Shown here piece by piece: positions 152 to 25,338 of a stretch of 64,000 bases of DNA. The stretch is taken from assembly GCF_048403405.1 (NCBI RefSeq), contig NZ_CP183129.1. One strand, 5' to 3'. Position numbers and translations under genes: made by a program. This stretch comes from Escherichia coli (GTDB lineage: Bacteria; Pseudomonadota; Gammaproteobacteria; Enterobacterales; Enterobacteriaceae). Each line of letters opens with the position of its first letter. Within the stretch, counting starts at the first letter, position 1. The notes below the pieces were generated by a model, which was given only the letters and a program-made list of their open reading frames with translations, searched no databases and was not told the DNA's origin.

Positions 152-196
152 GCGCTTTCTCTGTCGGATCGATAAATAGGGCAAAACAAACGCGCA

Positions 197-1811: not shown

Positions 1812-3124
<1,313 letters not shown>

Positions 3125-3165
3125 CCTGAACTCCATATGACAACCGCCCTGACGGGCGGTTGAAT

Positions 3166-3942
3166 TTATTCTTCAGTTTTTTCGCTTTCTGCTTCAGCGT
3201 CGTTTTCCTCTTCCCGATTTCGCCCTTTACCAACGTAAAAGCGTGAGAAGAAGACACCGATTTCAAACAGGCAGTACATCGGGATCGCCAACAGCGTTTG
3301 CGAGAAGACATCCGGCGGCGTCAGCAGCATCCCGACAACAAATGCACCAACCAGCACATACGGGCGTTTTTTGCGTAAGTCTTCTGGCGAGGTAATCCCC
3401 ATCCAGCACAGCAGCACTATTGCCACCGGCACTTCAAAGGAGACACCAAACGCCATAAACAGCGCCATAACGAAGCTTAAATAGCTGGCGATGTCGGTGG
3501 ATACCTGTACCCCTTCCGGCGCGGTATTGGCAAGGAAGCCAAATGCCAGCGGAAAGACCACAAAGTAGGCGAACGCCATGCCGATATAAAACAACAGAGA
3601 GCTGGAAACCAGCAGCGGCACCACCAGGCGACGTTCATGCTTATACAGCGCTGGGGCGATAAACGCCCACACCTGATAGAGAATCACCGGCGCTGACAGA
3701 ATCAGCGACACCATAAAGGTCAGCTTGATCGGCGTAAAGAACGGTGAGGCCACGTCGGTGGCGATCATCGTTGAACCTTGCGGCAACTGCTTGATCAATG
3801 GCGCGGATACCAGGTGATAGATGTCATTGGCGAAATAGACCAGACACAGGAATATCACGATCACCGCGATAATGCAGTTCAGCAGACGCTTACGCAGCTC
3901 AATCAGATGCGTGATAAGCGGTTGAGTATCTTCTACAGACAT
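3166..3942 (-). CDS. tatC: Twin-arginine translocase subunit TatC
   Basis: 258-aa polytopic membrane protein starting [20 protein letters not shown]; position in the tatABCD operon. Confidence 0.95.
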
Positions 3943-3944
3943 GT

Positions 3945-4460
3945 TTACGGTTTATCACTCGACGAAGGGGAAGGTGCAGCGGTTTTCGGTTCAGCGTCCG
4001 CAGCAGGTTTTACCACCGGCTCTGGCGTGGTTTCTGGCTTCTGTTCCGGCGAACTGGCCTGCGTTTGTGCAGCAGCAGGCGTTACGCCTTCATGCGCAGC
4101 TTCATTGTCTTTCACCACCGGGTTGTGGATGGTGTGCGCTTCATCACTCGCCTTTTCAGGATCGTTTGCAACGTAGGAACGCTTCATCGACTCCGCGGCC
4201 TGGCGTAGTTCATCCATCGACGCTTTCAGTTCGGGCGTCAGGTTAGTGAGGCTCGCCTTTTCAACCTTTTTCAGACTGTCCTGAAACTCCTGGAGTTTTA
4301 ACTCCTGGGTCAGTTCGTTCTGCACCGTTGTCGCCAGTGAACGCAACGCGCGAATCCAGCCCGCGACCGTTTTTACCGCCACAGGCAGTCGTTGCGGCCC
4401 CAGAACGACGAGGCCGATGATGAATACCAATAGCAGTTCGCTAAAACCGATATCAAACAC
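3945..4460 (-). CDS. tatB: Twin-arginine translocase subunit TatB
   Basis: 171-aa ORF starting [26 protein letters not shown], with the TatA/B-type N-terminal TM helix and amphipathic helix. Confidence 0.95.
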
Positions 4461-4463
4461 GGA

Positions 4464-4733
4464 TTACACCTGCTCTTTATCGTGGCGCTTCGCGTCTTCT
4501 GTTTTAGCCTGTTCCTGATTCGTATCCGCCTGCTTATCGGCGATAGTTTTCGCAGTAAAATCAGCATCCTGACTGGTTTTATCCTGCTTTGGTTCATCAT
4601 CGCTCATTGCTTTTTTAAAGCCTTTGATCGACGCACCAAGATCGGAACCGATGGAGCCGAGCTTTTTGGTGCCAAAAAGCAGTACAACGATGACGGCAAT
4701 AATCAATAACTGCCAAATACTGATACCACCCAT
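4464..4733 (-). CDS. tatA: Twin-arginine translocase subunit TatA
   Basis: The ORF is open back to 4775, but the canonical 89-aa TatA starts at the internal Met ([33 protein letters not shown]). Confidence 0.9.
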
Positions 4734-4811
4734 ACATGTTCCTCTGTGGTAGATGATGATTAAACAAGGCCGCATTATACGTTACACGGCCCGCCTTGAG
4801 CGATGAAAAAA

Positions 4812-7054
<2,243 letters not shown>

Positions 7055-7067
7055 TTCCGGTCTCCTG

Positions 7068-7823
7068 TCAGAACTTATAACCACGATGCAGCGCCACAAC
7101 CCCTGCCGTCAGATTGTAGTAGTCGACACTTTCGAATCCGGCATCTTGCATCATGGCTTTCAGGGTATCCTGATCGGGATGCATACGGATGGATTCTGCC
7201 AGATAACGGTAGCTGTCGGCGTCGTTCGCGACCAATGAGCCAATACGCGGCAGCACATGGAAGGAGTATGCATCATAGGCTTTGCTCAGCGGCTCGATAA
7301 TTGGCTTCGAGAACTCAAGCACCAGCAGGCGGCCGCCGGGTTTCAGCACGCGATACATTGAACGCAGTGCTTTATCTTTGTCGGTGACGTTACGCAGACC
7401 AAACGAAATGGTGATGCAATCAAAGGTGTTATCCGGGAACGGCAGCGCCTCAGCGTTCGCCTGAACATACTCAACGTTGCCAATCACACCGATATTACGC
7501 AGCTTCTCGCGTCCCATTTTGAGCATGGATTCATTGATATCAGCAAGGACCACTTTGCCAGTTTCTCCGACCAGGCGGGAGAATTTCGCTGTCAGGTCGC
7601 CGGTGCCACCAGCCAGATCCAGCACGGTCTGCCCGCGGCGTACGCCGCTGCAATCAATCGTGAATCGCTTCCACAAACGATGAATACCAAATGACATCAA
7701 ATCATTCATGACATCGTATTTTGATGCCACGGAATGGAAAACGTGGGCGACCATATCCGCTTTTTGTTCCTTCGCGACGGTCTGAAAACCAAAGTGCGTC
7801 GTTTCTTGTGACTTATCCACCAT
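7068..7823 (-). CDS. ubiE: Ubiquinone/menaquinone C-methyltransferase UbiE
   Basis: 251-aa SAM-dependent methyltransferase ([10 protein letters not shown] motif), first gene of the ubiE-ubiJ-ubiB cluster. Confidence 0.95.
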
Positions 7824-7917
7824 CTCAATGCCTGCTCATCAAAAAATTGTTCCAGAAGTGTAACAGATTGGGCGTCGATGCCCTAGATTTCTACCCGGCT
7901 TAACTACCCCCAATGGG

Positions 7918-9345
7918 CTAGCGCGACTGCTGATTATATTCATCATCGCGTTGATAAGCTTCATCATTCGGCTGCTCCGGAACCGACCGCAGTCGATACT
8001 CTTCATCCTGGCTCACCGCCTGTTCAGCCAAATCCGGATTAATCTCGCGTTTAATTTCTACCCCTAAACCGCGAAACGCTTCTGCCTGCGCCAGCACATT
8101 TCCGCGACCTGAAGAGAGTTTTTTCATTGCCTGGCGGTAGTTATCCTGCGCTTTGTCGAGACTTTGACCAATCGCGGACATGTCATCGATGAACAAACGC
8201 ATCTTGTCGTACAGCTTGCTGGCACGATCGGCGATTTGCTGGGCGTTGCGGCTTTGATGCTCATAACGCCACAGGTTGGCGATAGTGCGCAGCGCCACCA
8301 GCAGCGTAGTCGGGCTAACCAGCATGATATTGTTTTTCAACGCTTCGGTGATCAGCTCCGGCTGGCGGTCAAGCGCCAGTAAAAAAGCGGGTTCAACGGG
8401 AATAAACATCAGCACGTAATCCAGGGTTCGCAGCCCCGGCAGCTGTTGATAATCTTTGCGTCCCAGCAAACGGATATGGTTACGCACCGACGCGATATGT
8501 TCCTGTAGCGCGCTTTCGCGGGTGTAGTCATCTTCGGCGTTGAAATAGCGTTCATAGGCGACCAGCGTCATTTTGGCGTCGATCACCACATCTTTTCCCT
8601 GCGGCAACCGCACGATGACATCCGGCTGCATCCGCGAGCGGGCGTCATTTTCGATGCTGACCTGGGTTTCATATTCATACCCTTCACGCAGACCGGAAGC
8701 CTCCAGCACCCGCGTCAATACTACCTCGCCCCAGTTGCCCTGGGTTTTATTGTCGCCTTTCAGCGCGCGCGTCAGGTTGATCGCTTCCTGGGCCATTTGC
8801 GCGTTGAGCTGCTGGAGATTGCGAATTTCGTGGGTCAGGGTATGGCGTTCTTGTGCTTCTTTACCAAAGCTGTCCTGAACCTGACGGCGGAAACCGTCCA
8901 GTTGTTCACGTAGCGGCGACAACAGGCTGTTCAGACTCTGACGGTTTTGCTCATCAACCCGGCGATTGCTGTGCTCAAAAATACGGTTGGCGAGGTTTTC
9001 AAACTGCTCACTGAGGCGCTGCTCGCTGTTAATCATCTGGCGAATTTTATCGTCAGCATGTTGCTGTGCGGCTTCCATCCGCGTGGTTACTTCACGCAGA
9101 TCGGCCTCCAGAGAGGTGTTAATACTTTGCAGGCTGCGCACTTCGTTATTGAGTAACTCGCACTCAGCGCGCCAGTGCTCGCTTTGGGTAATTTGTTGTT
9201 TTGCCGCGCTTAACTCCGCGACCATCTCTTCACGTTCAGCTAATTGCTCGGCTTTTTGCTGCGCATGTTGATAACTGGCAAACAGCCAGCCAATTGCCAC
9301 ACCCACCAACGCAATAACTGCGTAAACCATGATTGAGAAATCCAC
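7918..9345 (-). CDS. rmuC: DNA recombination protein RmuC
   Basis: 475-aa ORF with N-terminal TM helix and long coiled-coil region; located between udp and ubiE. Confidence 0.9.
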   Translation of the reverse strand: MDFSIMVYAVIALVGVAIGWLFASYQHAQQKAEQLAEREEMVAELSAAKQQITQSEHWRAECELLNNEVRSLQSINTSLEADLREVTTRMEAAQQHADDKIRQMINSEQRLSEQFENLANRIFEHSNRRVDEQNRQSLNSLLSPLREQLDGFRRQVQDSFGKEAQERHTLTHEIRNLQQLNAQMAQEAINLTRALKGDNKTQGNWGEVVLTRVLEASGLREGYEYETQVSIENDARSRMQPDVIVRLPQGKDVVIDAKMTLVAYERYFNAEDDYTRESALQEHIASVRNHIRLLGRKDYQQLPGLRTLDYVLMFIPVEPAFLLALDRQPELITEALKNNIMLVSPTTLLVALRTIANLWRYEHQSRNAQQIADRASKLYDKMRLFIDDMSAIGQSLDKAQDNYRQAMKKLSSGRGNVLAQAEAFRGLGVEIKREINPDLAEQAVSQDEEYRLRSVPEQPNDEAYQRDDEYNQQSR

Positions 9346-9436
9346 AACGCCTCCTGACGCAACAACTTACCCGCACAAAATAGAATTGTGCTGTACAAAC
9401 GTCCAGTTGGAAAGGCATTTCCTGCGAGGCGCTACG

Positions 9437-9469
9437 CAAAAATACAAAAGGCCGAACGCGTCGGCCTTC
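9437..9469 (-). terminator. Rho-independent terminator downstream of udp
   Basis: On the minus strand: GGCCGACGCGTTCGGCC hairpin followed by TTTTGTATTTTT, about 20 nt after the udp stop. Confidence 0.6.
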
Positions 9470-9485
9470 AGACAGGAGAAGAGGA

Positions 9486-10247
9486 TTACAGCAGACGACG
9501 CGCCGCTTCCACCACGATTTTCACCGCTTGGCTTTCAGTTTGTTTCATCGTCTCAGCATTCGGGATCTCTTGCTGGGTGCGGTTAACGATAACACCCGCT
9601 ACCATACCGGCACGTAGGCCCTGACTTGCACACATGGTCAGCAGGGTTGCAGATTCCATTTCATAGTTCATTACGCCCATCGCCTGCCACTCTTCCATAG
9701 AACCTTTAAAGTGACGAACTACGCGACCAGAGTAAGTATCGTAACGTTCCTGACCTGGGTAGAAGGTATCAGAAGAAGCCGTCACGCCAACGTGAGTCGT
9801 CGCGCCGATGGATTTCGCAGCCTCAACCAGCGCAGTCGTACATTCGAAATCAGCGACAGCCGGGAATTCCAGCGGTGCGAAGTGCAGGCTCGCGCCATCC
9901 AGACGAACAGACGCCGTGGTAACCAGGACATCACCCACATTAATATGCGGCTGAATAGCGCCCGTTGTACCGATACGCAGGAAGGTGCGAATGCCCAGCT
10001 GTGCCAGCTCTTCAACAGCAATAGAGGTAGACGGGCCGCCGATACCGGTAGAGCAGACGATAACAGGTTTACCATCCAGCTCTGCACGCCAGGTGGTGAA
10101 TTCGCGGTGAGATGCCAGCTTAACCGGCTTATCCATCAGCGCGGCGATCTTTTCCACACGATCCGGGTCGCCAGGGACGATGGCAAGCGTAGCCCCTTGT
10201 AAATCGTTTTTAGTGAGGCCGAGATGAAAAACATCAGACTTGGACAT
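9486..10247 (-). CDS. udp: Uridine phosphorylase
   Basis: ORF open to 10253; canonical 253-aa Udp begins [19 protein letters not shown]. Confidence 0.95.
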
Positions 10248-13203: not shown

Positions 13204-14763
13204 ATGAAAGTTAAATATAAAGTTTTCAGTAATCTTTATCAGGACTCAGTTTCTCTGATGCAGATTTCCGCGCAAATCAGCAAGTTGCCCGGTATTCAAC
13301 AGGCCTCGGTCGTCATGGGAACACCCAATAATCTCGAACAATTGCGCGATGCGGGTCTGGGTAACGAAATCAACGCCAGTCCCAATGATTTAGTGATTGC
13401 AGTCATGGGTGAAGAAGATATTTGCAATGAAGCACTGGCACTGGCCCAGCAACGTCTGACCAGCAAACCCGATGATGAAACGGATAGTGGCATTAAAACA
13501 CCGGAAAATGTCAGCCTGGACATGGCACTGGAAGCCGAACCCGAAGCCAACCTGGCACTCATTTCTGTACCGGGAGACTACGCCGCCGCCGAAGCAATTA
13601 AAGCGTTAAACCTCGGAATGAACGTGATGATGTTCAGCGATAACGTCAGTATCGCGCAGGAAAAATCCATCAAAATACTTGCCCGAGAACGTCAGCGCAT
13701 CGTAATGGGACCTGACTGTGGAACCGCCATTGTTAACGGCATTCCGTTAGGCTTCGCTAATGTGGTGAAACGCGGAGCAATTGGTGTTATTGGCGCGTCA
13801 GGCACCGGGCTACAGGAAGTGACTTGCCGAATCGACCAGCTCGGAGCGGGTATTTCTCAGGCGCTGGGAACAGGCGGGCATGATCTCAGTGAAGAGATTG
13901 GTGGAATATCGATGCTCTTCGCTTTAGATGCGCTGGCGCAAGACGATGAAACTCGCGTAATTGTGCTGATTTCAAAACCGCCTTCACCGATCGTTGCCCG
14001 GACTATTCTGGAGCGTGCCGAGGCTTGTGGAAAACCCGTGGTGGTGAATTTCCTCGGTGCGAATCCGCATGATCTGGCACGTCCCAATATCACTGCCGCC
14101 ACCACACTTGCCAGCGCCGCCGACATCGCTGTGGCGTTACTGAATGCTCAGCCACTTCCGGCTGTCGAGACCGAGATTTCCTGCGCCGATCTCACAATGT
14201 TACAAAACGCCTGTCAGCGCCTGCCAGCCCATCGCCAGGCGATACGCGGTGTTTTCGCCGGAGGAACCTTCTGCTACGAAGCGCAACTTATCTGCCAGCA
14301 AAAGGGATTCCGCGCCGCCTCCAATACGCCAGTTGCGAGTAATCGTACTCTGGCAAATATCTGGCAAAGCGAAGATCACACGCTGATCGATATGGGCGAC
14401 GATGATTTCACCCGTGGCAAACCGCATCCAATGATCGACCCGACTCTGCGCAATCAACGTCTGCTCAACGAACTCAACGACTCACACACTGCCGTCGTGT
14501 TATTCGACCTGGTACTTGGTTATGGCGCTTCCGCTACACCTGCCAGCGAATTACTGGACCAACTTTCACACATCGACATGAATAACGCACCGTTGCTGAT
14601 TGCGCACGTTTGCGGAACGGAAGCTGATCCGCAAATACGCAGTCAGCAGATAAGCGCACTACAAAATGCGGGCATCATCATTGCCAGCAGCAATGCACAG
14701 GCGGCGCTATGGGCCAGCGTCGTTGCGCAGACTCAGTTGCAGAAAAAGGGGCTAAACGCATGA
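13204..14763 (+). CDS. FdrA-like protein (CoA-binding / succinyl-CoA-synthetase-like fold; AllF/YahF family)
   Basis: 519-aa ORF sharing long motifs with E. coli FdrA as I recall it (NLALISVPGDYAA, MMFSDNVS, MGPDCGTAIVNGIPLGFANVV, GVIGASGTGLQEV, GRPHPMIDPTLRNQ). Confidence 0.8.
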   Translation: MKVKYKVFSNLYQDSVSLMQISAQISKLPGIQQASVVMGTPNNLEQLRDAGLGNEINASPNDLVIAVMGEEDICNEALALAQQRLTSKPDDETDSGIKTPENVSLDMALEAEPEANLALISVPGDYAAAEAIKALNLGMNVMMFSDNVSIAQEKSIKILARERQRIVMGPDCGTAIVNGIPLGFANVVKRGAIGVIGASGTGLQEVTCRIDQLGAGISQALGTGGHDLSEEIGGISMLFALDALAQDDETRVIVLISKPPSPIVARTILERAEACGKPVVVNFLGANPHDLARPNITAATTLASAADIAVALLNAQPLPAVETEISCADLTMLQNACQRLPAHRQAIRGVFAGGTFCYEAQLICQQKGFRAASNTPVASNRTLANIWQSEDHTLIDMGDDDFTRGKPHPMIDPTLRNQRLLNELNDSHTAVVLFDLVLGYGASATPASELLDQLSHIDMNNAPLLIAHVCGTEADPQIRSQQISALQNAGIIIASSNAQAALWASVVAQTQLQKKGLNA

Positions 14764-16184
14764 ATACCTTATTTAATCAGCCTTTGAAGGTTGTGAACGC
14801 GGGACTACACAGTTTTGCTGACAATATTCAACATGCCGGGGGAAGCGCAATTGCACTCAACTGGCAGCCACCAGCACAAGGCGATATTGACGCTGGATTG
14901 GATCTGGCATCGTTGCTACGTCATCCACTGGTAGAAAATGCCAACCAAATCGCCATGACACGTTATCTCGAAGCACAGCCCGTGCTGGTAGATGTCATGC
15001 TCGCTAAAGAGGCCATTCCAGCAATGGCTGAACAAAAACGTATTTTGCACTCTGGCCCGCCGATTGCCTGGGAAGAGATGTGTGGTCCGGTAAAAGGGGC
15101 GATTATTGGTGCCATGCTGTACGAAGGTTGGGCCACCAGCCAGCAAGACGCTGAAAACCAGATAAACGCAGGCGAAATCGACCTTGCCCCTTGTCATCAT
15201 TATCACGCGGTTGGCCCAATGGCTGGCATCATCAGCCCGTCGATGCCGTTATGGGTGGTAGAAAACAAAACCAACGGCCACCGTACTTTTAGCAATTTCA
15301 ATGAAGGTCTGGGTAAGGTTCTCCGTTTTGGCGCCAATAACGATGAAGTTCTCAATCGTCTGGCCTGGATGCGCGATGAACTGGCGCCGGCAATGAAAGC
15401 AGCAATCGCACAACACGGCGAGCTGGAACTCAAGCCATTAATGGCGCAGGCGCTGCATATGGGGGATGAAGTTCATAACCGCAATGCTGCCGCTACCGGT
15501 TTGCTGATTAAGCGCCTGCTCCCGGCATTGCTGGCCTGCTCTCTTCCACAGGAACATATCCAGCGCGTCGTGGCATTTATCACCGGTAACGATCACTTCT
15601 TCCTCAATCTGTCGATGGCTGCCTGTAAAGCAATGATGGATGCCGCCGCCAATGTACCGTTCAGTTCAATGGTTACGGTGATGGCGCGTAACGGGGTGAA
15701 TTTTGGTATTCGGCTTTCCGGTACTGGCGATCGCTGGTTCCAGGCTCCTGCCAATGCCGTTGAAGGTCTGTTCTTCCCCGGATTTGGCGTTGACGACGCT
15801 GCTGCTGACCTGGGTGATAGCGCAATTACTGAAACCGCAGGTGTGGGTGGCTTCGCGATGGCGTCGTCTCCGGCGATCGTCAAATTTGTGGGAGGCACCC
15901 CTGCCGATGCCACCAATAACAGCCGTCGGATGCAAGCCATCACCCTCGGCGGTAACCCCGCATTTACACTTCCAGCCCTCAATTTTGCCCCCACCGCAGC
16001 AGGGATTGATGCGCGTAAAGTGACCGATCGCGGCATTTTACCGGTCATCAATACGGGTATCGCCCACAAACAAGCGGGGGTCGGGCAAATTGGTGCCGGG
16101 ATCACCACTGCGCCGATGGCCTGTTTTGTCGCCGCTGTACGTGCACTGGCGGAGATCGTCGCAAAGGAGAACCATCATGGTTAA
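14760..16184 (+). CDS. DUF1116-family protein (YlbE/YahG/AllG-like)
   Basis: ORF open from 14709; I place the start at the ATG at 14760, which overlaps the FdrA-like stop (ATGA), giving MNTLFNQPLKVVNAG. Same gene order as yahF-yahG and fdrA-ylbE. Confidence 0.75.
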   Translation: MNTLFNQPLKVVNAGLHSFADNIQHAGGSAIALNWQPPAQGDIDAGLDLASLLRHPLVENANQIAMTRYLEAQPVLVDVMLAKEAIPAMAEQKRILHSGPPIAWEEMCGPVKGAIIGAMLYEGWATSQQDAENQINAGEIDLAPCHHYHAVGPMAGIISPSMPLWVVENKTNGHRTFSNFNEGLGKVLRFGANNDEVLNRLAWMRDELAPAMKAAIAQHGELELKPLMAQALHMGDEVHNRNAAATGLLIKRLLPALLACSLPQEHIQRVVAFITGNDHFFLNLSMAACKAMMDAAANVPFSSMVTVMARNGVNFGIRLSGTGDRWFQAPANAVEGLFFPGFGVDDAAADLGDSAITETAGVGGFAMASSPAIVKFVGGTPADATNNSRRMQAITLGGNPAFTLPALNFAPTAAGIDARKVTDRGILPVINTGIAHKQAGVGQIGAGITTAPMACFVAAVRALAEIVAKENHHG

Positions 16185-17133
16185 GCCACTGGCTGTTGTC
16201 GCGGTTGGCGGCAATGCGCTCATTCAGGACGAGCAACGCAATAGTATTCCCGATCAATATGTTGCAGTGATGGAAAGCGTGCAGCATATCGTTGATATGG
16301 TTGAAGCCGGATGGGACCTGGTGCTAACCCACGGTAATGGCCCGCAGGTGGGCTTTATTCTGCGCCGCTCTGAACTCGCCAGTAACGAAGTTTCTCCGGT
16401 TCCACTTGATTACGCCGTGGGTGATACACAAGGTGCAATTGGCTACATGTTCCAGAAAGCGCTGCATTACGAATTGGCTCGCCGTGGCATAAACAAACCG
16501 GTAATTGCCCTGGTGACACAAACGCGAGTCAGCCCACATGACGATGCTTTCGCCAACCCCAGTAAACCGATTGGCGCGTTTCTCGATGAAGCAACGGCCC
16601 AACAACGCCAACAACAACTCGGCTGGACGCTGATGGAGGACGCCGGGCGTGGTTGGCGGCGTACAGTTCCCTCTCCTGCACCACTGGAAATTATTGAGCA
16701 CGACACCATCGCTCACCTGGTGCGCCAGGGATATCTGGTTATTGCCTGCGGCGGCGGCGGTATTCCGGTGGTGCGAGACGGGCAACAACTGAAAGGTGTA
16801 GAAGCCGTGATCGATAAAGATCTGGCCTCCGCGCTGCTCGCCAGTCAGTTAGGCGCAGATCTGCTGGTGATCCCCACCGGTGTAGAAAAAGTGGCGATTA
16901 ACTTTGGTACACCACAACAACAGTGGCTCGACGCTATCAGCGTTGCCGAAGCGCAAACGCTGTTGCGGGAAGGTCAGTTTGGTGTCGGCAGTATGCAACC
17001 CAAAGTGGAAGCCATTGTTGATTTCATCAATGCCAGCCAGCAACAAGGCAAACAGGCCAGCGGCCTGATTACTTCACCGCAAACCATAAAAGCAGCCCTG
17101 GCGCATCAGAGCGGTACATGGATAACCCTTTAA
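16177..17133 (+). CDS. Carbamate kinase (ArcC/YahI/AllK family)
   Basis: ORF open from 16090; start placed at MVKPLAVVAVGGNALI (the classic carbamate kinase N-terminus) with an AAGGAGA SD 7 nt upstream; 8-bp overlap with the preceding gene. Confidence 0.85.
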   Translation: MVKPLAVVAVGGNALIQDEQRNSIPDQYVAVMESVQHIVDMVEAGWDLVLTHGNGPQVGFILRRSELASNEVSPVPLDYAVGDTQGAIGYMFQKALHYELARRGINKPVIALVTQTRVSPHDDAFANPSKPIGAFLDEATAQQRQQQLGWTLMEDAGRGWRRTVPSPAPLEIIEHDTIAHLVRQGYLVIACGGGGIPVVRDGQQLKGVEAVIDKDLASALLASQLGADLLVIPTGVEKVAINFGTPQQQWLDAISVAEAQTLLREGQFGVGSMQPKVEAIVDFINASQQQGKQASGLITSPQTIKAALAHQSGTWITL

Positions 17134-17149
17134 ATCTCTGGAGAACACA

Positions 17150-17539
17150 ATGACTACAACGCTTTTAGCCGTTAACGGAACGCTGATGCGCGGCCTGGAA
17201 CTCAACCCAAATATGAAAAAAGCGGGCGGTATTTTTGTCCGTGAAGACCGAACTGACGCCCATTACCGGTTGTGGAGTATTAACGATCGCCATCCGGGAA
17301 TGATTCGCGTGAATGAAGGAGGAACACACGTCGACGTAGAAATTTGGCAATTACCGCTGGCCAGTTTTGCCGCTCTGTTAATGAGCGAACCCGCTGGGCT
17401 GGCAATTGGCAAAATCAAACTTGCCGATGGTAGCGAAGTGCTGGGCGTACTGGCAGAAAACTGGCTGACCGAAGGCCAACGGGAAATTACAGAACTGGGC
17501 GGCTGGCGCAAATACACCGGGCATTTTCATACTGTGTAA
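17150..17539 (+). CDS. Small protein resembling the C-terminal domain of allophanate hydrolase (GGCT-like fold), tentative
   Basis: 129-aa ORF. The segment YRLWSINDRHPGMIRVNEGGTHVDVEIWQLPLASFAALLMSEPAGLAIGKIKLADGSEVLGVLAENW...LGGWRKY resembles the allophanate hydrolase C-terminal domain pattern as I remember it. Assignment from memory only. Confidence 0.5.
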   Translation: MTTTLLAVNGTLMRGLELNPNMKKAGGIFVREDRTDAHYRLWSINDRHPGMIRVNEGGTHVDVEIWQLPLASFAALLMSEPAGLAIGKIKLADGSEVLGVLAENWLTEGQREITELGGWRKYTGHFHTV

Positions 17540-17564
17540 CGCGCATTTATAAAGGGAACATACT

Positions 17565-18788
17565 ATGCGTAAAAAAGAAGAGAATCTGAATACGGCATCA
17601 GGATTGCGTATTGCCATGATTTTGCTGGGTATTGCCGTCACACCTGTGCTGTTGTCATCCTCAAGCCTCGGCAATCAACTTTCCAGCGGCAGTTTAATTA
17701 GCGTCGTATTGTTAGGCGGCGTCATTCTGACCTTACTTTCAGCCATCACCATTAGCGTGGGAGAAAAAGCCCGCCTGCCAACGTATGGCATTGTGAAATA
17801 TTCGTTTGGCGAAAAAGGGGCCATCGCCATTAACATTTTGATGGCGATAAGTCTGTTCGGCTGGATTGCCGTTACCGCCAATATGTTTGGTCATTCGGTA
17901 CATGACTTACTGGCTCAACATGGACTGGAAGTTCCACTGGCACTGTTAGTGGCGGCTGGCTGTGTCATTTTTGTCGCCTCTACGGCATTTGGCTTTGCCG
18001 TTCTGGGAAAAATTGCCCAGGTTGCCGTGCCGGTTATCGCGCTGGTGCTGTGTTACATCCTCTATGTGGCAACCCATACCGAAGTGGCAGTACCAGCGGC
18101 GATTGTGGAGATGAATACAGGTGTCGCCGTTTCCACCGTTGTTGGCACCATTATTGTGCTGGTTGCCACACTGCCTGATTTCGGTAGTTTTGTGCATAAC
18201 CGCAAACATGCACTGATTGCCGCAGGCGTGACGTTTCTGGTTGCCTACCCTCTGCTCTACTGGGCGGGTGCAACGCCGAGCGCCATTAGTGGTCAGGGAT
18301 CTTTACTGGGTGCGATGGCGGTATTCGGTGCGGTTCTGCCTGCGGCGCTGTTGTTGATTTTCGCCTGCGTCACCGGTAACGCGGGCAATATGTTCCAGGG
18401 CACGCTGGTGGTTTCCACACTGCTTACCCGCTTTCCCAAATGGCAGATTACCGTGGCGCTGGGTATCCTTTCCGCCATCGTAGGCAGTATGGATATTATG
18501 GCGTGGTTTATTCCGTTTCTGCTGTTCCTGGGTATCGCCACGCCACCCGTTGCCGGAATTTATATCGCTGACTTTTTCCTTTATCGCCGTAATGGCTATC
18601 AAGAGTCAGTGTTAGCCCAGGAGTCACAGATTAAAGTGCTGACATTCGCAGCATGGATCATAGGCGCAGCGGTTGGCTTTATGACCGTAAAAGGCTTATT
18701 CACCCTGACGACGATCCCTTCGGTAGACTCGATTCTGGTGGCATGTATCGCGTATGCGATTCTCAGTCGGGCAAGTCAACACCGCTAA
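17565..18788 (+). CDS. NCS1-family nucleobase/hydantoin-type permease (CodB-like)
   Basis: 407-aa polytopic membrane protein (about 12 hydrophobic segments) with length and organisation like the cytosine permease CodB. Confidence 0.75.
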   Translation: MRKKEENLNTASGLRIAMILLGIAVTPVLLSSSSLGNQLSSGSLISVVLLGGVILTLLSAITISVGEKARLPTYGIVKYSFGEKGAIAINILMAISLFGWIAVTANMFGHSVHDLLAQHGLEVPLALLVAAGCVIFVASTAFGFAVLGKIAQVAVPVIALVLCYILYVATHTEVAVPAAIVEMNTGVAVSTVVGTIIVLVATLPDFGSFVHNRKHALIAAGVTFLVAYPLLYWAGATPSAISGQGSLLGAMAVFGAVLPAALLLIFACVTGNAGNMFQGTLVVSTLLTRFPKWQITVALGILSAIVGSMDIMAWFIPFLLFLGIATPPVAGIYIADFFLYRRNGYQESVLAQESQIKVLTFAAWIIGAAVGFMTVKGLFTLTTIPSVDSILVACIAYAILSRASQHR

Positions 18789-18865
18789 TTCCTGGGTATA
18801 CTCAGGCAATGATTACGGCTGAATCTGGAGAGATTCAGCCACTTTACCACTGACCAGGGAGCCTT

Positions 18866-19771
18866 ATGTTCATCTCAGACGAAACGCTTCGTGTTATTCA
18901 TCTGGTCGCCAGACACCAGAGCATTACCATCGCAGCCGAGCAGTTAAATAAAGTCCCTTCCGCCATCAGTTACACCATCAAGAAAGCGGAAGAGAGCCTG
19001 GGCGTTGAACTGTTCATTCGTAAGGGACGCTATATTGAATTATCGCCAGCGGGAAGTTACTTCATCGAACATAGCAAAACTATTCTTGGCGACCTGGAAG
19101 CATTAAAGCGCAACACAGTGCTGATTCACGATGGTATTGAGCGTGAACTGACAATTGCGGTAAACAATATTATTCCTGGTAATTTGCTGGTGGCATTTAT
19201 TCGAGATTTTGAACGGCAATTCACATCAACAACACTGACGGTAGATCTTGAGGTATACAACGGCTGCTGGGATGCGCTGTACAGTAAGCGTGCTGATCTG
19301 GTCTACGGTGCTCCTCATGCAGTACCAAGTAGTGAAGGCATCATTAGCGAACCGGTCGGACAAATGGAATGGGATTTTGTCGTCAGCCCACTCCACCCAC
19401 TGGCAGCGAAGCGGCATCCATTAGAAAACAGTGAATTGCGTCATTATCCAGCGGTTTGTATCCGCGATACCTCCGTTAACTTCCCCCCGATGCAAGCCTG
19501 GTTGTTGGAAGGACAAAAACCCATTTTTGTTCCTGACTTCGCTACGGCAATCGCCTTAATAGAACAAAACGTCGGTATTGGTTATATTCCACATCATCTG
19601 GCATTGCCGTTATTGAACAGCGGTAAATTGCTTAAAAAGCCAATGCGCGAACATAAACACGCCACCAAGTTATTTCTTGCCGCTCGTTCCGATGGTATGG
19701 GCAAAGCCTGTCAGTGGTGCATAGAATATTTAAGAAACCCGCAATTAATGACACGATTTGTATTTAATTGA
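18866..19771 (+). CDS. LysR-family transcriptional regulator
   Basis: 301-aa ORF with N-terminal HTH (ITIAAEQLNKVPSAISYTIKKAEESLGVELFIRKGR) and C-terminal LysR substrate-binding domain. Confidence 0.85.
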   Translation: MFISDETLRVIHLVARHQSITIAAEQLNKVPSAISYTIKKAEESLGVELFIRKGRYIELSPAGSYFIEHSKTILGDLEALKRNTVLIHDGIERELTIAVNNIIPGNLLVAFIRDFERQFTSTTLTVDLEVYNGCWDALYSKRADLVYGAPHAVPSSEGIISEPVGQMEWDFVVSPLHPLAAKRHPLENSELRHYPAVCIRDTSVNFPPMQAWLLEGQKPIFVPDFATAIALIEQNVGIGYIPHHLALPLLNSGKLLKKPMREHKHATKLFLAARSDGMGKACQWCIEYLRNPQLMTRFVFN

Positions 19772-19940: not shown

Positions 19941-19970
19941 CACTTTCTGTCAGAATGAAATTTACTAATT

Positions 19971-20816
19971 ATGAATAACATAACCGTAAAAAGTCTGATT
20001 CAAAGCAATTACCCTACACTGCATCAGGCGGAAAAAAAGGTCGCCGACTATATTCTTAGCCACGCACATGAAGTCGTGAACTATAGTGTCACTGAACTAT
20101 CAGAAAAAAGCCATGCCAGTGAAGCGACTATCGTGCGCACCTGTAAGAAATTAGGTTATCAGGGTTATTACCATTTAAAAATTGCATTAGCAAAAGAAGT
20201 CATTAATCCTGACAATAGCTATCCTGATAATACCGATTTTACCGATATAACGTCGCTGGCCACATTTTTATTAAAAAAACAGGCCGAAGATTTAATACAA
20301 TCAACGCAATTTTTTAATGCCGAAGTGCTTGAGTCCATTCTCAAACTACTTGCTAATTGCGATACTATTTTCTTTTTTGCTGCCGGAAATTCAAACCCTC
20401 TGGCCGTTTATGGTGCTTATAAATTCAGCCAACTCGGATTAAAAACCGTTGTTCACGTCAGCCCGGAAATGCAAATTAATGCGGCATATTCTATGGGGAA
20501 ACGCGACCTGGCGATTGGTATTTCTAACTCTGGCAGCACCAACTTAATGGTCGATATCTTTAAAGTGGTGAAAGAGCGCGGTGCCAAATCCGTTTGTATC
20601 ACTAACTATATTAAATCTCCGTTATCAAAACTCTCCACCCATCAACTCAATACCGCGGTCAGCGATAAAATCTTCTTTGAAGCCTTCGACTCCACTCGCG
20701 TTCCGGCAATGGGCGTTATTGATATGCTGGTGCTGTTGTTTATGTATAAAAACAAGGCGCATTACGAGAAATACCGCACCCGTGAAGAGTTTCTCGGCTC
20801 CCGTTTCAAGGGGTAA
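19971..20816 (+). CDS. RpiR/MurR-family transcriptional regulator (HTH + SIS domain)
   Basis: 281-aa ORF with N-terminal HTH_6-type region (SVTELSEKSHASEATIVRTCKKLGYQGYYHLK) and C-terminal SIS domain. Confidence 0.85.
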   Translation: MNNITVKSLIQSNYPTLHQAEKKVADYILSHAHEVVNYSVTELSEKSHASEATIVRTCKKLGYQGYYHLKIALAKEVINPDNSYPDNTDFTDITSLATFLLKKQAEDLIQSTQFFNAEVLESILKLLANCDTIFFFAAGNSNPLAVYGAYKFSQLGLKTVVHVSPEMQINAAYSMGKRDLAIGISNSGSTNLMVDIFKVVKERGAKSVCITNYIKSPLSKLSTHQLNTAVSDKIFFEAFDSTRVPAMGVIDMLVLLFMYKNKAHYEKYRTREEFLGSRFKG

Positions 20817-20840
20817 AAGGTCATCCTTTCACCCCTTGTG
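20810..20840. terminator. Hairpin between the convergent RpiR-family and transketolase genes (possible bidirectional terminator)
   Basis: GGGGTAAAAGG-TCAT-CCTTTCACCCC inverted repeat overlapping the rpiR-like stop codon, followed by TTGTG; 30-bp gap between convergent stops. Confidence 0.4.
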
Positions 20841-20845
20841 CAGGT

Positions 20846-22843
20846 TTAGCTATTCAGTAGCTCACGCGCCTGCGCCAGGACATTTTCCGGCGTAAAACCA
20901 AAGTGTTTGAACAACACATTCGCCGGAGCAGACTCACCAAAGCTCGTCATCCCAATGACTTTACCATCCAGACCGACGTAGCGTTCCCAGAATCCGGCGA
21001 TGCTGGCTTCTACCGCCAGACGTTTGCGTACAGCTTTTGGCAATACCGATTCTTTGTACGCCGCATCCTGATTATCGAAACGCTCGGTACACGGCATGGA
21101 AACTACGCGAACTTTACGCCCTTCTTCCGTTAACGCTTTTGCGGCGCTGACCACTAACTCAATCTCTGAACCCGCAGAAATGAGGATCATCTCAGGCTGA
21201 CCGTCACAATCACTCAGTACATAACCACCACGCGCAATCTCTGCCAACTGTGCAGCGGTGCGCGGCTGTTGCGCCAGCGGTTGGCGCGTTAATACCAACG
21301 ACGTTGGGCCATCTTTGCGCTCAATCGCCTGTTGCCAGGCCACCGCCACTTCCACCTGATCGCAACCGCGCCAGGTTTCCATATTCGGCGTCAGACGCAG
21401 CGACGCCAGTTGCTCAACGGGCTGATGTGTCGGGCCGTCTTCGCCCAGGCCGATGGTATCGTGGGTATAAACAAACACCGAGCGGATCTTCATCAGCGCC
21501 GCCATGCGCAGTGCATTACGCGCATATTCCATAAACATCAGGAAAGTACCGCCGTAAGGGATAAACCCACCATGCAGCGCAAGACCGTTCATGATGGCCG
21601 ACATACCAAATTCACGCACGCCATAGGAGATGTAATTCCCCGCCGGATTTTCCCCGGTGAAATCAACCGATTTCTGATGGCGAGTCAGGTTAGAGGGCGA
21701 CAAGTCCGCCGAGCCGCCCATCAGTTCCGGCAGCATATCAGCGAAGTGATTGAGGCATTTCTGGCTGACCTGACGGGTTGCCAGCGCCGCCGGATGGGAT
21801 TGCAGATCGTGCACATATTTCTGCATATTCTCGGCCCAGCCAGCAGGCAAATCACCCTTCATGCGACGAGTAAACTCCGCCGCCAGTTCCGGCCACTGCT
21901 TCGCGTAGTCAGCAAACAGTGCATCCCATTCCTGTTGAACCTGCGCGCCTTTCTCGGTCGCATCCCATTCGGCATAAATTTCACCAGGAATTTCGAAAGG
22001 GGCATACGGCCATTGCAGACGTTCACGCACCAGCGCCACTTCATCTGCACCCAGCGCCGAGCCGTGGCAATCGTGGCTGTTGGCTTTATTTGGTGAACCA
22101 AAACCGATAATCGTTTTGCAGCACAGCAGACTGGGCTTATCCGTGACGCTTTTCGCTTCACGCACCGCAGCATCTACCGCTTCTGGATCGTGACCATCAA
22201 CGCCTTCAATGACATGCCAGCCGTAGGCACGAAAACGGGCAGCCGTATCTTCAGCGAACCAGCCTTCTACGTGACCATCGATCGAAATACCGTTATCGTC
22301 CCAGATAGCAATCAGATTGCCGAGCTTCAGCGTTCCTGCAAGACCACAGGCCTCGTGGGAGATCCCTTCCATCAGGCAGCCATCACCCAAAAATAGCCAT
22401 GTGTGATGATCAACAATATTAAAGCCCGGTTTGTTAAATTCTGCCGCCAGCGCCTTCTCCGCAATCGCCATCCCCACCGCATTAGCTACGCCCTGCCCCA
22501 ACGGGCCGGTGGTGGTTTCAACACCCGGCGTATAACCATATTCTGGATGACCCGGCGTGCGGGAGTGGAGCTGACGAAAGTCGCGAATATCATCCATCGA
22601 CAGGTCGTAGCCTGTAAGATGCAGCAAAGCGTAAATCAACATGGAGCCGTGACCGTTCGACTGAACATAGCGGTCGCGGTTAAACCACTGCGGATTTTTT
22701 GGGTTATGACGCAGGTGACGACGCCAGACCACTTCGGCAATATCCGCCATCCCCATCGGCGCGCCCGGATGACCGGAGTTCGCTTTCTGGATCGCATCAA
22801 CACTTAACATTCGGATGGCATTAGCCAGTAATTGTGAATTCAT
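20846..22843 (-). CDS. tkt: Transketolase paralog (third tkt copy; possibly the ExPEC-associated 'tkt1')
   Basis: 665-aa ORF collinear with E. coli TktA/TktB over its whole length ([81 protein letters not shown]) but clearly divergent from both, and located in an accessory island. Confidence 0.9.
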
Positions 22844-22893
22844 ACTTCAGCTCTCTCTGTCTGGCGGGCTGAAACCAGCCCGCTAATCTCGAA

Positions 22894-24402
22894 TTAGTTA
22901 GCACAGGCCACTGTCATTTCTGTCGGGCGCGGTCTGCTCATTACGGTTTTAATTTCGTCGCGCAGGATTTGCGATTTGCCGCCAAATATCACCTGTACAC
23001 CGCCATCACCCAGTTTCACTAACCCCGCAGCCCCCAACTCCTTCAGCCGTTTTTCATTCACTTTCTTATCGTCTACCAGCGCCAGCCTCAGGCGTGTTGC
23101 GCAGGCATCCACATCTTCGATATTGTCGAAACCACCTACTGCTTCGATGATTTGGTATGGACGTTCTTCGCGCGTTAATGTGGTTGCAACGGCAATCTCT
23201 TCATCCTCACGTCCCGGTGTTTTCAGATTCAACTTGCGGATCAGTACCCGAAATACGGTGTAGTAAATCGCTGCATAGCCCGCGCCTGCCAGGAACACCA
23301 GATACCACGGCGTGCGGTTTGGCATAACGCCATTCAGTACGAAATCAATAAGACCGCCAGCAAAAGGATGACCAATGTGCACATTCAGGATGTTCATCAG
23401 CACAAATGAAGTGGCATATAAGAAGATGTGAATGATGTAGAGAACCGGAGCTGCAAACAAAAATGCATATTCCAGCGGCTCCGTAATCCCGGTAACAAAT
23501 GTGGTCAGCGCACCGGAGAGTAAAAGGCCTTTAATCAGCGCCTTACGTTCCGGTTTTGCTTCCTGATACATCGCCAACGCGGCGGCAGGTAACGCAAACA
23601 TCATGATCGGGAAACGACCTGTCATAAACAGCCCCGCCGTCAACGGAACACCGTCGCGCAATTGGGCAAAGAACACCGGAATATCGCCCGTCACCAGTTG
23701 CCCGGATTTGGTCATGTAGTCGCCAAAGTTGTAATAAAACGGCACGTTCCAGATATGATGCAGGCCAAAAGGAATCAGCGAACGTTCGCCAACGGCGTAA
23801 ATAAAGGCCGCGAAGTTCGCGTTATGCCCACTGGTCACCAGCGTTGAAAGCGACGCCAGACCTTTTTGTACCGGTATCCACAGCCACGGCAATAAATAGC
23901 CGACAATAATTGCCGCCACCGCCGTAATAATCGGTACAAAGCGTTTTCCACCGAAGAAACCAAGAAACTGAGGCAATTCAATATTGTGGAAGCGGGTATA
24001 GAGCAGATAAACAAAGATGGCGACAATCAAACCGCCAAACACTCCCGTTTGTAACGTCGGTACCCCGAGGATCATCGCATAGTCACCGTTACTGGCTGCA
24101 ACGGACTCCGCGGTAATGCCAAGTTGCGTTCCCATCGTGGCATTCATGATCATGTAACTGATAATCGCTGAAAGTGATGAAGAACCATCACCTGTCAGGC
24201 CAATCACAATACCGACACAAAACAGCAAAGGAAGGTTGGCGAAAATCAGGCCGCCGCAATTCGCCAGCAGCTCAATGTTAAATGAAATCCCGATGGCTAA
24301 AATCAAACCCGCCGCCGGAAGAATGGCGATTGGTAACATCAGAGCAGAAGAAAATTTCTGCAACTTCTTGAAGTTAAACAAGGATGTTATTTTTTTGCTC
24401 AT
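22894..24402 (-). CDS. PTS glucose-family EIICB component (EIIC domain followed by EIIB domain)
   Basis: 502-aa ORF: polytopic EIIC region, then a C-terminal EIIB domain with the phosphocysteine motif DACATRLRL. No EIIA domain. Confidence 0.85.
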   Translation of the reverse strand: MSKKITSLFNFKKLQKFSSALMLPIAILPAAGLILAIGISFNIELLANCGGLIFANLPLLFCVGIVIGLTGDGSSSLSAIISYMIMNATMGTQLGITAESVAASNGDYAMILGVPTLQTGVFGGLIVAIFVYLLYTRFHNIELPQFLGFFGGKRFVPIITAVAAIIVGYLLPWLWIPVQKGLASLSTLVTSGHNANFAAFIYAVGERSLIPFGLHHIWNVPFYYNFGDYMTKSGQLVTGDIPVFFAQLRDGVPLTAGLFMTGRFPIMMFALPAAALAMYQEAKPERKALIKGLLLSGALTTFVTGITEPLEYAFLFAAPVLYIIHIFLYATSFVLMNILNVHIGHPFAGGLIDFVLNGVMPNRTPWYLVFLAGAGYAAIYYTVFRVLIRKLNLKTPGREDEEIAVATTLTREERPYQIIEAVGGFDNIEDVDACATRLRLALVDDKKVNEKRLKELGAAGLVKLGDGGVQVIFGGKSQILRDEIKTVMSRPRPTEMTVACAN

Positions 24403-24443
24403 TTTTATTCTCCTGTAGGGTATCGAGCAAATAACGGCGACGA

Positions 24444-25001
24444 CTATTCCAGATTGGCGTGGCGCTTAAACAGTTCACTTTCCGGCGCACCACTTTCAGC
24501 AGCCATCTTCATCACTAATGCATCGGCAATCACCAGCAAAGCTTGCTCATACAACGACGCCATCGGCTGTGCCGAGCGGAAAACAGAATCTTTTTGATTT
24601 TTGGAAGGGGCATTGATTTGCACGATGACGTCGACAAACTCGGTGATAGTGGCGTGTCGATTCGTGGTTAACACCGCCACAGCGCCGCCAAGCTGACGTG
24701 CTTTTTTCGCCAGTGCCACCAGTTGTGCTGTCTCACCGGAAGCGGAAGAAACGATAAACAGATCGCCAGGCCCAAAGTTCGGCGTAATGGTTTCCGTCAG
24801 AAAGTAAACCTCTTTTCCCATATGCATCAGGCGCATGGTGAAGGCTTTCATGGAAAAGCCGGCGCGTCCCAGGCCATAGCAGAAAACGCGCTGGCTTTGC
24901 TGAATAGCGTCGATCAATTTGGTGCAGTCATCCTCACGGATAGAGTCCTTAACGAAGGTTAATTCATTGATGATCTCAGTGATGTACAGCTTTGCGTCCA
25001 T
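24444..25001 (-). CDS. SIS-domain sugar-phosphate isomerase resembling 6-phospho-3-hexuloisomerase (PHI/HxlB-like)
   Basis: ORF open to 25013; start placed at the second Met (MDAKLYITEII), which has a GAGGTG SD about 6 nt upstream. About 185 aa with FTMRLMHMG, SASGET and C-terminal HANLE, as in PHI/HxlB as I recall it. Confidence 0.7.
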   Translation of the reverse strand: MDAKLYITEIINELTFVKDSIREDDCTKLIDAIQQSQRVFCYGLGRAGFSMKAFTMRLMHMGKEVYFLTETITPNFGPGDLFIVSSASGETAQLVALAKKARQLGGAVAVLTTNRHATITEFVDVIVQINAPSKNQKDSVFRSAQPMASLYEQALLVIADALVMKMAAESGAPESELFKRHANLE

Positions 25002-25307
25002 TTCACACCTCATGAAATAATTTTCTCAAACACAAAATCTCATGAAATTTTATTTCATTCCAATGCATCAGTATGAAATGTGAAGCTAGTCACAAGAAAG
25101 ATCATAGGTTGATATGTTTTTCATTAAAAAACATATAGATATCAAGTAATTTTTAATATGTGATGGAGAGGCAGATAGAAAAAATGGCGGAAATGACGAA
25201 ATTTATTTCATGAGAAGGGAATAAAGAAGATTTTCTTAAACAGGGTATGAACTGATATCTGGAATGGTTTACGCAGTATGCTGGGAAGACGTCGCTGTAA
25301 TGAGAAA

Positions 25308-25338
25308 AGACCGGGTGGTATTACCACCCGGTTTGGAT
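25308..25338 (-). terminator. Rho-independent terminator downstream of metE
   Basis: ACCGGGTGG-TATT-ACCACCCGGT palindrome just 3' of the metE stop, flanked by T-rich tracts in both orientations. Confidence 0.5.

Follow-up and report, generated by a model that had tools for sequence, protein, structure and literature searches.

A 6-phospho-3-hexuloisomerase homolog without a neighboring hexulose-6-phosphate synthase in a putative sugar-catabolic module of Escherichia coli

In a 64-kb stretch of the Escherichia coli chromosome around udp-ysgA...metE-metR-recQ (the window, i.e., the whole stretch of DNA that was analyzed), the gene at positions 24444 to 25001 encodes a protein of the 6-phospho-3-hexuloisomerase (PHI) family. 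The locus, the gene, and the family name are already known from databases and literature. Our analysis indicates that the gene product is probably a functional isomerase of this family that acts independently of hexulose-6-phosphate synthase (HPS), the other half of the ribulose monophosphate (RuMP) pair, within a self-contained and horizontally mobile four-gene module for sugar catabolism. Its most likely role is that of a catabolic isomerase under the control of CRP, which converts a sugar 6-phosphate delivered by a phosphotransferase system (PTS) into a substrate of transketolase. The features of the module are the following, given with their positions in the window:

24444 to 25001, minus strand: gene for a PHI-family (HxlB-like) sugar-phosphate isomerase with a single SIS domain, the first gene of the operon, recognized by its open reading frame (ORF), its motifs, the TIGR03127 model, the SIS domain, and its clade
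25006 to 25011, minus strand: Shine-Dalgarno sequence GAGGTG, read from the sequence, 4 nt upstream of the ATG at 25001
22894 to 24402, minus strand: gene for a PtsG-like PTS permease, EIIC-EIIB without an EIIA domain (TIGR02002, 608.6 bits against a cut-off of 591.8)
20846 to 22843, minus strand: gene for the transketolase Tkt1 (665 amino acids), the final gene of the operon (TIGR00232, 1009 bits against a cut-off of 682)
19971 to 20816, plus strand: gene for a MurR/RpiR-family regulator (HTH_6 and SIS domains), convergent with tkt1, recognized by NCBIfam matches of the RpiR/HexR/AlsR type
19968 to 25062, no strand assigned: the four-gene module as a whole (phi-like gene, EIICB gene, tkt1, and rpiR; 5.1 kb), delimited by blastn of the window against the Klebsiella contig L002

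At its longest, the isomerase ORF extends from 24444 to 25013 on the minus strand, and its second ATG, at 25001, is the start used by RefSeq, which yields a protein of 185 amino acids (WP_000339042.1) labeled "hxlB: 6-phospho-3-hexuloisomerase". The Shine-Dalgarno sequence preceding this ATG is kept as GAGGTG in Klebsiella, and its equivalent in the upstream alignment is GGAGG in Serratia. The protein matches the NCBIfam model TIGR03127 (RuMP_HxlB) with 205.3 bits (cut-off 160) over model positions 2-178 of 178, contains one Pfam domain, the SIS domain PF01380 (residues 33-155), and carries the motifs FTMRLMHMG (residues 54-62), SASGET (86-91), and HANLE (181-185). Its nearest solved structures, aligned over near full length, are those of Bacillus subtilis YckF (1m3s, E 3e-39), AF1796 (1e-29), and MJ1247 (9e-25), while the model for GmhA (NF010547, 25.7 bits against a cut-off of 320) and the KdsD-type model for KpsF/GutQ (TIGR00393, 20.4 bits against a cut-off of 203.7) failed on it. 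In the genomes listed, the gene is full-length at a nucleotide identity of approximately 98.4-100%. Among 5426 complete E. coli genomes, the module is present in 1134, and each of these has the gene at full length with an identity of at least 95%. In comparison to the Klebsiella ortholog, dN is 0.146, a value that cannot be expressed as a dN/dS ratio because dS is saturated. The isomerase gene is real, intact, and under constraint.

As a query for HPS, we used HxlA of Bacillus methanolicus PB1 (contig L057, positions 9345-9980), which itself reaches 282 bits with TIGR03128 (cut-off 200). No HPS was detected by tblastn in the window, the sole match at E ≤ 10 being a fragment of 15 residues with an E of 8.5. 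In strain MS 69-1, which carries a 100% identical module and of which part of the genome was examined, an HPS homolog, UlaD, is encoded 0.49 Mb away in the ascorbate operon. This protein shares 32% identity with the B. methanolicus HPS, scores 149.6 bits with the HxlA model, below the cut-off of 200, and passes the models for the decarboxylase of 3-keto-L-gulonate 6-phosphate (KGPDC). An earlier note on this DNA had described a PHI-like gene that lacks an HPS partner, is recognizable by the three motifs named above, and is paired instead with a PTS permease and a transketolase, and it had proposed a tblastn search for HPS elsewhere. Each of these statements was borne out: the ORF is intact, has a single SIS domain, and passes the HxlB model, all three motifs are present in the translation, both partners follow on the same strand, and the search returned no HPS in the window and, in the part of the MS 69-1 genome examined, the homolog UlaD.

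The intergenic gaps within the operon are short, with 41 nt between the isomerase gene and the EIICB gene and 50 nt between the latter and tkt1. The permease contains the EIIB phosphorylation motif CATRLR in its translation and is 90%, 84%, 70%, and 62% identical to its counterparts in clusters of the same type in Klebsiella, Serratia, Sebaldella, and Rhodococcus, respectively. Judged by these alignments, the transporter is strikingly conserved across phyla within such clusters, and the partners of the isomerase look functional. Tkt1 and E. coli TktA (2r5n) can be aligned over their entire length (1073 bits), the tkt1 gene shows a dN/dS of 0.028 in comparison to Klebsiella, and the sequence of Tkt1 marks it as a canonical transketolase. 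The RpiR protein is the presumed phosphosugar-sensing regulator of the operon, and orthologs of it are found in the clusters of Klebsiella, Serratia, Sebaldella, Enterococcus, and Secundilactobacillus. The G+C content of rpiR (41.3%) is much below that of tkt1 (54.7%), the isomerase gene (50.5%), and the whole window (51.5%). Together, the four genes form a single block in common with Klebsiella (74.8% nucleotide identity), which spans from the rpiR start, where the homology ends exactly, to 60 bp upstream of the isomerase gene.

The gene neighborhoods of relatives from the same clade were compared in 14 contexts from at least 4 phyla (proteins 44-80% identical to the isomerase; partly metagenomic and mostly obtained by exact-protein look-ups). 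HPS adjoins the clade paralog in none of the 14, whereas among the matches listed, 70 of 78 canonical loci (PHI at most 43.8% identical; mostly from Bacillaceae and Paenibacillus) have HPS adjoining the PHI gene at a distance of approximately 600 bp, and most of the 8 exceptions are located at contig ends. In 10 of the 14 contexts, a transketolase gene lies no more than 5 kb away, as one full-length gene in Proteobacteria and as split N- and C-terminal parts in Firmicutes and Fusobacteria. Uptake genes are those of a glucose-family PTS in 8 contexts, and ROK and/or ABC uptake genes in the other 6. Furthermore, the clade genes are often found beside genes for a GFO_IDH_MocA (GFO) dehydrogenase, an AP_endonuc_2 enzyme, an alpha/beta-hydrolase, and a glycerate kinase; the dehydrogenase/AP_endonuc_2/hydrolase branch occurs in 7 contexts, 3 of which include a glycerate kinase as well. 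The individual arrangements, with TKT standing for transketolase and TKT-N and TKT-C for its split parts, are:

Klebsiella: PHI, PTS, and TKT, with a convergent operon of GFO dehydrogenase, AP_endonuc_2 enzyme, alpha/beta-hydrolase, MOFRL glycerate kinase, and RpiR
Serratia ficaria: PHI and PTS with the same accessory operon as in Klebsiella and no transketolase
Two metagenomic contigs with enterobacterial-like order: TKT and PHI beside ROK and ABC uptake genes, one of them also with hydrolase and AP_endonuc_2 enzyme
Glutamicibacter and Rhodococcus: GntR, then PHI, PTS, (HPr-EI), GFO dehydrogenase, AP_endonuc_2 enzyme, and hydrolase
Enterococcus thailandicus: GFO dehydrogenase, hydrolase, glycerate kinase, phosphoketolase, PHI, TKT-N, TKT-C, PTS, and RpiR
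Enterocloster: ABC, PfkB, Fe-ADH, ROK, PHI, class II aldolase, and TKT-N/C
Secundilactobacillus: PHI, RpiR, TKT, and ROK
A Lachnospiraceae metagenome-assembled genome (MAG), in a large rare-sugar cluster: PHI, psicose 3-epimerase, tagatose-kinase-like and GatZ-like proteins, TKT-N/C, GFO dehydrogenase, AP_endonuc_2 enzyme, and hydrolase
Sebaldella: PHI, TKT-N, TKT-C, PTS, and RpiR, i.e., the four-gene core of E. coli
Two further metagenomic contigs: Firmicute-like

A neighbor-joining tree of 176 PHI-family proteins (midpoint-rooted) split into groups of 75 and 101, with all 70 HPS-adjacent proteins on one side and all HPS-less contexts that were included on the other, together with the E. coli isomerase. 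This bipartition received 97 of 100 bootstraps with an internal branch of 0.18 (80 labeled sequences). One metagenomic contig, L093, carries three PHI paralogs within 18 kb: the paralog beside a true HxlA is nearest to canonical PHIs, while the transketolase-linked paralog falls into the E. coli clade, and both kinds of PHI thus coexist there, each with its own partners. On the same Firmicute contig, the HxlA (274 bits against a cut-off of 200) and the canonical-type PHI are interleaved with Dak1 and Dak2 (positions 635-5648) and follow an EIIA_2/IIB/IIC PTS, which places an HPS-PHI pair inside an operon for a PTS and a dihydroxyacetone kinase. The third paralog (17042-17602) is the last gene of a mannose-type PTS operon controlled by sigma-54/LevR.

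Within the alignment, conservation exceeds 95% in both clades at 32 positions, and the E. coli isomerase has the conserved residue at every one of them, including R46, H60, E70, T71, S86, S88, G89, T91, K134, Q145, P146, M147, E152, H181, and E185. Residues typical of the clade are L44, A47, Q93, and A148, in place of A, S, S, and G in canonical PHIs. A strict screen for specificity positions returned a single position (L44 versus A), and a looser one returned ten, none of them obviously catalytic. There is no sign in these residues of a changed chemistry; because all canonical PHI invariants are kept, neither the chemistry nor even the use of a hexulose-6-phosphate-like substrate need have changed, and an enediol-type migration of the carbonyl group on a 6-phosphosugar would be the default assumption for the isomerase. 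The earlier note had expected a physiological role different from that in the RuMP pair as well as a different substrate, and had named an HPS gene adjacent in related islands as one observation that would speak against it. Such a gene was found in none of the 14 related contexts, and a role outside the RuMP pair is well supported, since HPS is never adjacent, the clade is separate, and L093 has both kinds of PHI. The proposed change of substrate is at most a possibility, as the PHI invariants are all retained; the note's idea of a 3-keto hexose is indirectly favored by the GFO-type dehydrogenases in the clusters of relatives, the genes for which E. coli lacks.

Upstream of the isomerase gene, 340 bp of AT-rich DNA separate it from the metE terminator and contain predicted regulatory sites:

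25310 to 25332, minus strand: metE terminator hairpin (10-bp stem with 7 GC pairs, T-run), the core-genome edge beside the module
25079 to 25094, no strand assigned: perfect CRP consensus core TGTGA-N6-TCACA, a predicted cAMP-CRP activation site found by pattern search
25010 to 25018 and 25040 to 25048, minus strand: two copies of ATTTCATGA, a candidate operator, possibly for RpiR, from the upstream alignment of E. coli, Klebsiella, and Serratia

The CRP core reads TGTGAAGCTAGTCACA, lies 78-93 bp upstream of the isomerase start codon, and was the sole exact match within the window in a targeted pattern search, with 0.09 expected by chance. Its TGTGA half-site is invariant upstream of the Klebsiella and Serratia orthologs. 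Exact copies of TCATGAAAT / ATTTCATGA occur 4 times in the window (0.93 expected), with 3 of them within 25010-25213, and two of the copies upstream of the isomerase gene are kept in Klebsiella and Serratia; by their position and conservation, the ATTTCATGA repeats are a possible operator. A sigma-70 consensus scan upstream of the isomerase gene found nothing. No formaldehyde-responsive regulator (e.g., a divergent HxlR) was recognized beside the operon, the flanking regulators belonging to the RpiR and LysR families. As far as the predicted sites can be read, the upstream region is the signature of a catabolite-controlled sugar operon, with no hint of formaldehyde sensing.

In the RefSeq annotation of an identical locus, the module represents the metE-proximal end of the 16-kb tkt1 island, which is located between metE and ysgA in avian pathogenic (APEC) and extraintestinal pathogenic E. 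coli (ExPEC). The isomerase ORF corresponds to APECO1_2643, a "putative sugar isomerase" followed by a glucose-type PTS IIBC and the transketolase gene named tkt1 (PMC3349570), and the gene order of the identical locus agrees with that publication (sugar isomerase, PTS IIBC, tkt1, two regulators, permease, carbamate kinase). The island is enriched in ExPEC B2 lineages and is needed for APEC virulence via tkt1 (PMC3349570). Furthermore, hxlB is statistically associated with E. coli clades linked to necrotizing enterocolitis (p 7.3e-10; PMC4819403). In the sampled E. coli genomes, none of the three structural genes is disrupted. Of 1135 module matches in the E. coli collection, 1 sits on a plasmid record and not on a chromosome. 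On the metagenomic contig L005 (positions 1-4752), a TKT-PHI pair directly adjoins the conjugative-transfer genes TrbK, TrbL, VirB8, CagX, and TrbI, which is consistent with horizontal mobility of the module.

For the pathway, we infer the following order of steps. The PtsG-like EIICB would import and phosphorylate a glucose-like sugar and, because it lacks an EIIA domain, we propose that phosphorylation proceeds via the general EIIA-Glc. The isomerase would then shift the carbonyl group of the sugar 6-phosphate via an enediol, analogous to the shift between C3 and C2 by PHI, resulting in a 2-ketose phosphate that the canonical transketolase could take as a donor, with the carbon entering the pentose-phosphate pool. 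RpiR would sense a phosphosugar, and cAMP-CRP would limit expression to the absence of better sugars. In the relatives, the branch of GFO dehydrogenase, AP_endonuc_2 protein, and alpha/beta-hydrolase either joins the isomerase and transporter or replaces the transketolase. That the product is a ketose phosphate bound for the pentose-phosphate network can be argued from the twofold recruitment of transketolase and from the Enterococcus phosphoketolase. Likewise, the presence of glycerate kinases of two unrelated folds beside the dehydrogenase/hydrolase branch (MOFRL-type in Klebsiella and Serratia, Gly_kinase-type in Enterococcus) argues for the release of glycerate by this branch. The four-gene core of Sebaldella, with its 70% identical transporter, speaks for a core that may be self-sufficient.

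From the context of the accessory branch, the family would seem to act on 3-keto (3-ulose) sugar phosphates arising from oxidation at C3, and a GFO-type dehydrogenase beside a PHI-type isomerase would fit such compounds as shared intermediates. More broadly, and only as a tentative proposal that we regard as rather doubtful in its full extent, there could be an undescribed route across Proteobacteria, Actinobacteria, Firmicutes, and Fusobacteria, in which 3-keto (3-ulose) hexose 6-phosphates, either taken up as oxidized sugars or made by a GFO 3-dehydrogenase after phosphorylation by a PTS or kinase, are converted by the PHI-like enzyme into 2-ketose phosphates that are split by transketolase or cleaved by the alpha/beta-hydrolase to glycerate and triose phosphate; ExPEC, Klebsiella, and enterococci might thereby scavenge oxidized sugars from other microbes. 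As substrates, 3-ketoglucose, 1,5-anhydrofructose, kanosamine, lipopolysaccharide (LPS) heptose, rare ketohexoses, and glucosylglycerate were considered on grounds of chemistry only and are not endorsed.

The trio of GFO_IDH_MocA dehydrogenase, AP_endonuc_2 protein, and alpha/beta-hydrolase recurs on contigs L002 (13211-16558), L004 (647-5872), L008 (8782-11530), and L091 (13830-16587), spanning Proteobacteria, Actinobacteria, and Firmicutes, with no close characterized or solved relative. Searches of the accessory enzymes against NCBIfam and the PDB returned distant sub-threshold matches only, which did not identify the sugar; the dehydrogenases match the models for glycoside 3-dehydrogenase, levoglucosan dehydrogenase, DgpA, and IolG weakly and far below their cut-offs, and the AP_endonuc_2 protein has no match in the PDB at E ≤ 1e-5. 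The DNA of the Klebsiella accessory operon (dehydrogenase, AP_endonuc_2 protein, hydrolase, and glycerate kinase) has no match in the 5426 E. coli genomes. In the Lachnospiraceae MAG (L012), a second, divergent PHI-like paralog (1149-1724) scores 130 bits, below the cut-off, and the region at 6162-10207 encodes a D-psicose 3-epimerase above its cut-off, a tagatose-kinase-like PfkB, a GatZ/KbaZ-like protein, and an unassigned ORF of 277 amino acids. This cluster hints at metabolism of rare ketohexoses or hexitols around the PHI family.

Several points weigh against an HPS-independent catabolic isomerase in a complete module. E. coli lacks the dehydrogenase branch, which, should the substrate be a 3-keto sugar phosphate, leaves its source there unexplained, and if fructose-6-phosphate were the product of the isomerase, there would seem to be no need for a dedicated transketolase. 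A K-12 transketolase mutant was not complemented by overexpression of Tkt1, and the phenotype of the tkt1 mutant concerns the use of dipeptides as a nitrogen source and not the use of sugar (PMC3349570). In addition, the clade is represented by a small sample of 14 contexts, the 78 canonical loci are biased towards Bacillota, and the split of the 176 proteins was obtained by a distance-based method only.

Among the alternatives, the gene product might be an aldose-ketose isomerase that converts, e.g., a PTS-delivered heptose 7-phosphate to sedoheptulose 7-phosphate (the reverse of the GmhA reaction) or a rare aldohexose 6-phosphate to its ketose, with transketolase consuming the product. SIS enzymes of similar size, such as GmhA and KdsD, indeed catalyze aldose-ketose isomerization, and as sedoheptulose-7-phosphate is a transketolase substrate, this would explain the dedicated transketolase as well as the Enterococcus phosphoketolase; in the clusters of the ABC type, the gene is found together with glucokinase-like ROK kinases, whose substrates are aldoses. 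However, the GmhA and KpsF/KdsD models gave marginal scores while the PHI model was passed, the PHI-invariant residues are all conserved, and E. coli already has GmhA and two transketolases. We consider this alternative unlikely.

Alternatively, the E. coli module could be the leftover of a larger locus of the Klebsiella/Serratia type that has lost the accessory operon, so that the pathway is no longer complete. The extra operon beside the module in Klebsiella and Serratia, its unmatched DNA in the E. coli genomes, the exact stop of the Klebsiella homology at the rpiR start, and the failed complementation by Tkt1 (PMC3349570) would all fit this scenario. It is nevertheless hard to reconcile with the same four-gene core standing alone in Sebaldella, a member of another phylum, with three structural genes that are intact in the sampled genomes and a module retained in 1134 genomes, with strong purifying selection, with a conserved promoter region and its perfect CRP site, and with the enrichment of the island in ExPEC B2 lineages (PMC3349570), and we judge a remnant to be quite improbable.

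That the gene product is a 6-phospho-3-hexuloisomerase of the ordinary kind, acting in a split pathway for RuMP or formaldehyde detoxification, with HPS supplied in trans by UlaD or SgbH and ribulose-5-phosphate regenerated by the transketolase as in RuMP clusters, is very unlikely: a score above the HxlB equivalog cut-off, the retention of all family-invariant residues, the presence of UlaD in a genome with an identical module, and the reported promiscuity between KGPDC and HPS (refs 36 and 37 in PMC5980557) are compatible with it, but the clade never lies beside HPS while canonical PHIs almost always do, L093 carries an HxlA-PHI pair of its own besides the transketolase-linked paralog, the operon combines a sugar PTS, RpiR, and a CRP site and not a formaldehyde sensor, and UlaD falls below the HxlA cut-off.

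The remaining half of the island (13204-19771, plus strand), which may reach further left towards ysgA, is an unrelated cluster encoding, in this order, FdrA, a DUF1116 protein, a carbamate kinase, a protein of 129 amino acids that resembles the C-terminal end of allophanate hydrolase only, a cytosine-permease-like NCS1 transporter, and an AllS/PunR-like LysR regulator. RefSeq adds a cysteine hydrolase and a DUF2877 protein upstream. The cluster resembles a gene set for breaking down a nitrogen heterocycle or carbamoyl compound and might bear on the published nitrogen-source phenotype of the island.

The literature searched contains no biochemical work on the isomerase or its clade; what it offers is limited to the tkt1 paper of 2012, a genome paper of 2026, in which the island is still listed as uncharacterized except for tkt1, and the lineage association. 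Within these sources, neither a function nor a substrate is assigned to the isomerase gene, and the "hxlB" genes are not recognized as a clade of their own, independent of HPS and linked with sugar uptake, transketolase, and an accessory branch. The NCBI annotation pipeline PGAP labels every clade member "6-phospho-3-hexuloisomerase", which implies formaldehyde assimilation in ExPEC, Klebsiella, and enterococci, while the genomic context of these genes argues for a different, sugar-catabolic role. The module constitutes an orphan, transferable four-gene pathway on an island tied to ExPEC virulence and to E. coli clades at risk of causing necrotizing enterocolitis. If the sugar were identified, an orphan island of major pathogens would gain a function, and a new entry into the pentose-phosphate pathway could come to light; the small size of the module makes it amenable to direct testing.

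In comparison to canonical PHIs (HxlB/YckF, 1m3s; MJ1247, 1jeo; Phi of B. methanolicus), the E. coli isomerase belongs to the same family model, has a single SIS domain and approximately 185 amino acids, shares 39-44% identity, and contains the same S-x-S-G-x-T phosphate loop, QPM-x-SL-x-EQ motif, and C-terminal H-x-N-LE. Unlike these proteins, it has neither an adjacent nor a fused HPS, falls into a separate clade, and is encoded inside an operon with PTS, transketolase, and RpiR genes and a CRP consensus site. The study of the tkt1 island (Li et al. 2012, BMC Microbiol 12:51) concerned the same metE-ysgA locus and covered tkt1 alone, i.e., its prevalence, its non-complementation, and the dipeptide nitrogen phenotype, whereas the isomerase, its family, the missing HPS, and the spread of the module beyond E. 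coli were not treated.

The L-ascorbate pathway encoded by ula/sgb represents a mirror case, in which an HPS homolog (UlaD/SgbH) works without a PHI. In both systems, half of the RuMP pair has been recruited into a PTS-dependent sugar operon feeding the pentose-phosphate pathway, and the ula pathway also includes an epimerase of the AP_endonuc_2 fold, UlaE, and a hydrolase, UlaG. The E. coli module differs in that it recruits the PHI half, together with a PTS of the glucose family and not of the ascorbate family. Routes for 3-keto sugars that combine a GFO 3-dehydrogenase with a partner of the AP_endonuc_2 fold are E. coli YcjS/YcjR, glycoside 3-dehydrogenase systems such as BT2158/2159, and the levoglucosan route with LgdA, and the clusters of the relatives resemble them in pairing a GFO_IDH_MocA dehydrogenase with an AP_endonuc_2 protein. 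In contrast to these routes, however, the clusters of the relatives lie downstream of a PTS and presumably act on phosphorylated sugars, and they additionally include an alpha/beta-hydrolase, a glycerate kinase, and the PHI-like isomerase, with the accessory genes being absent from E. coli.

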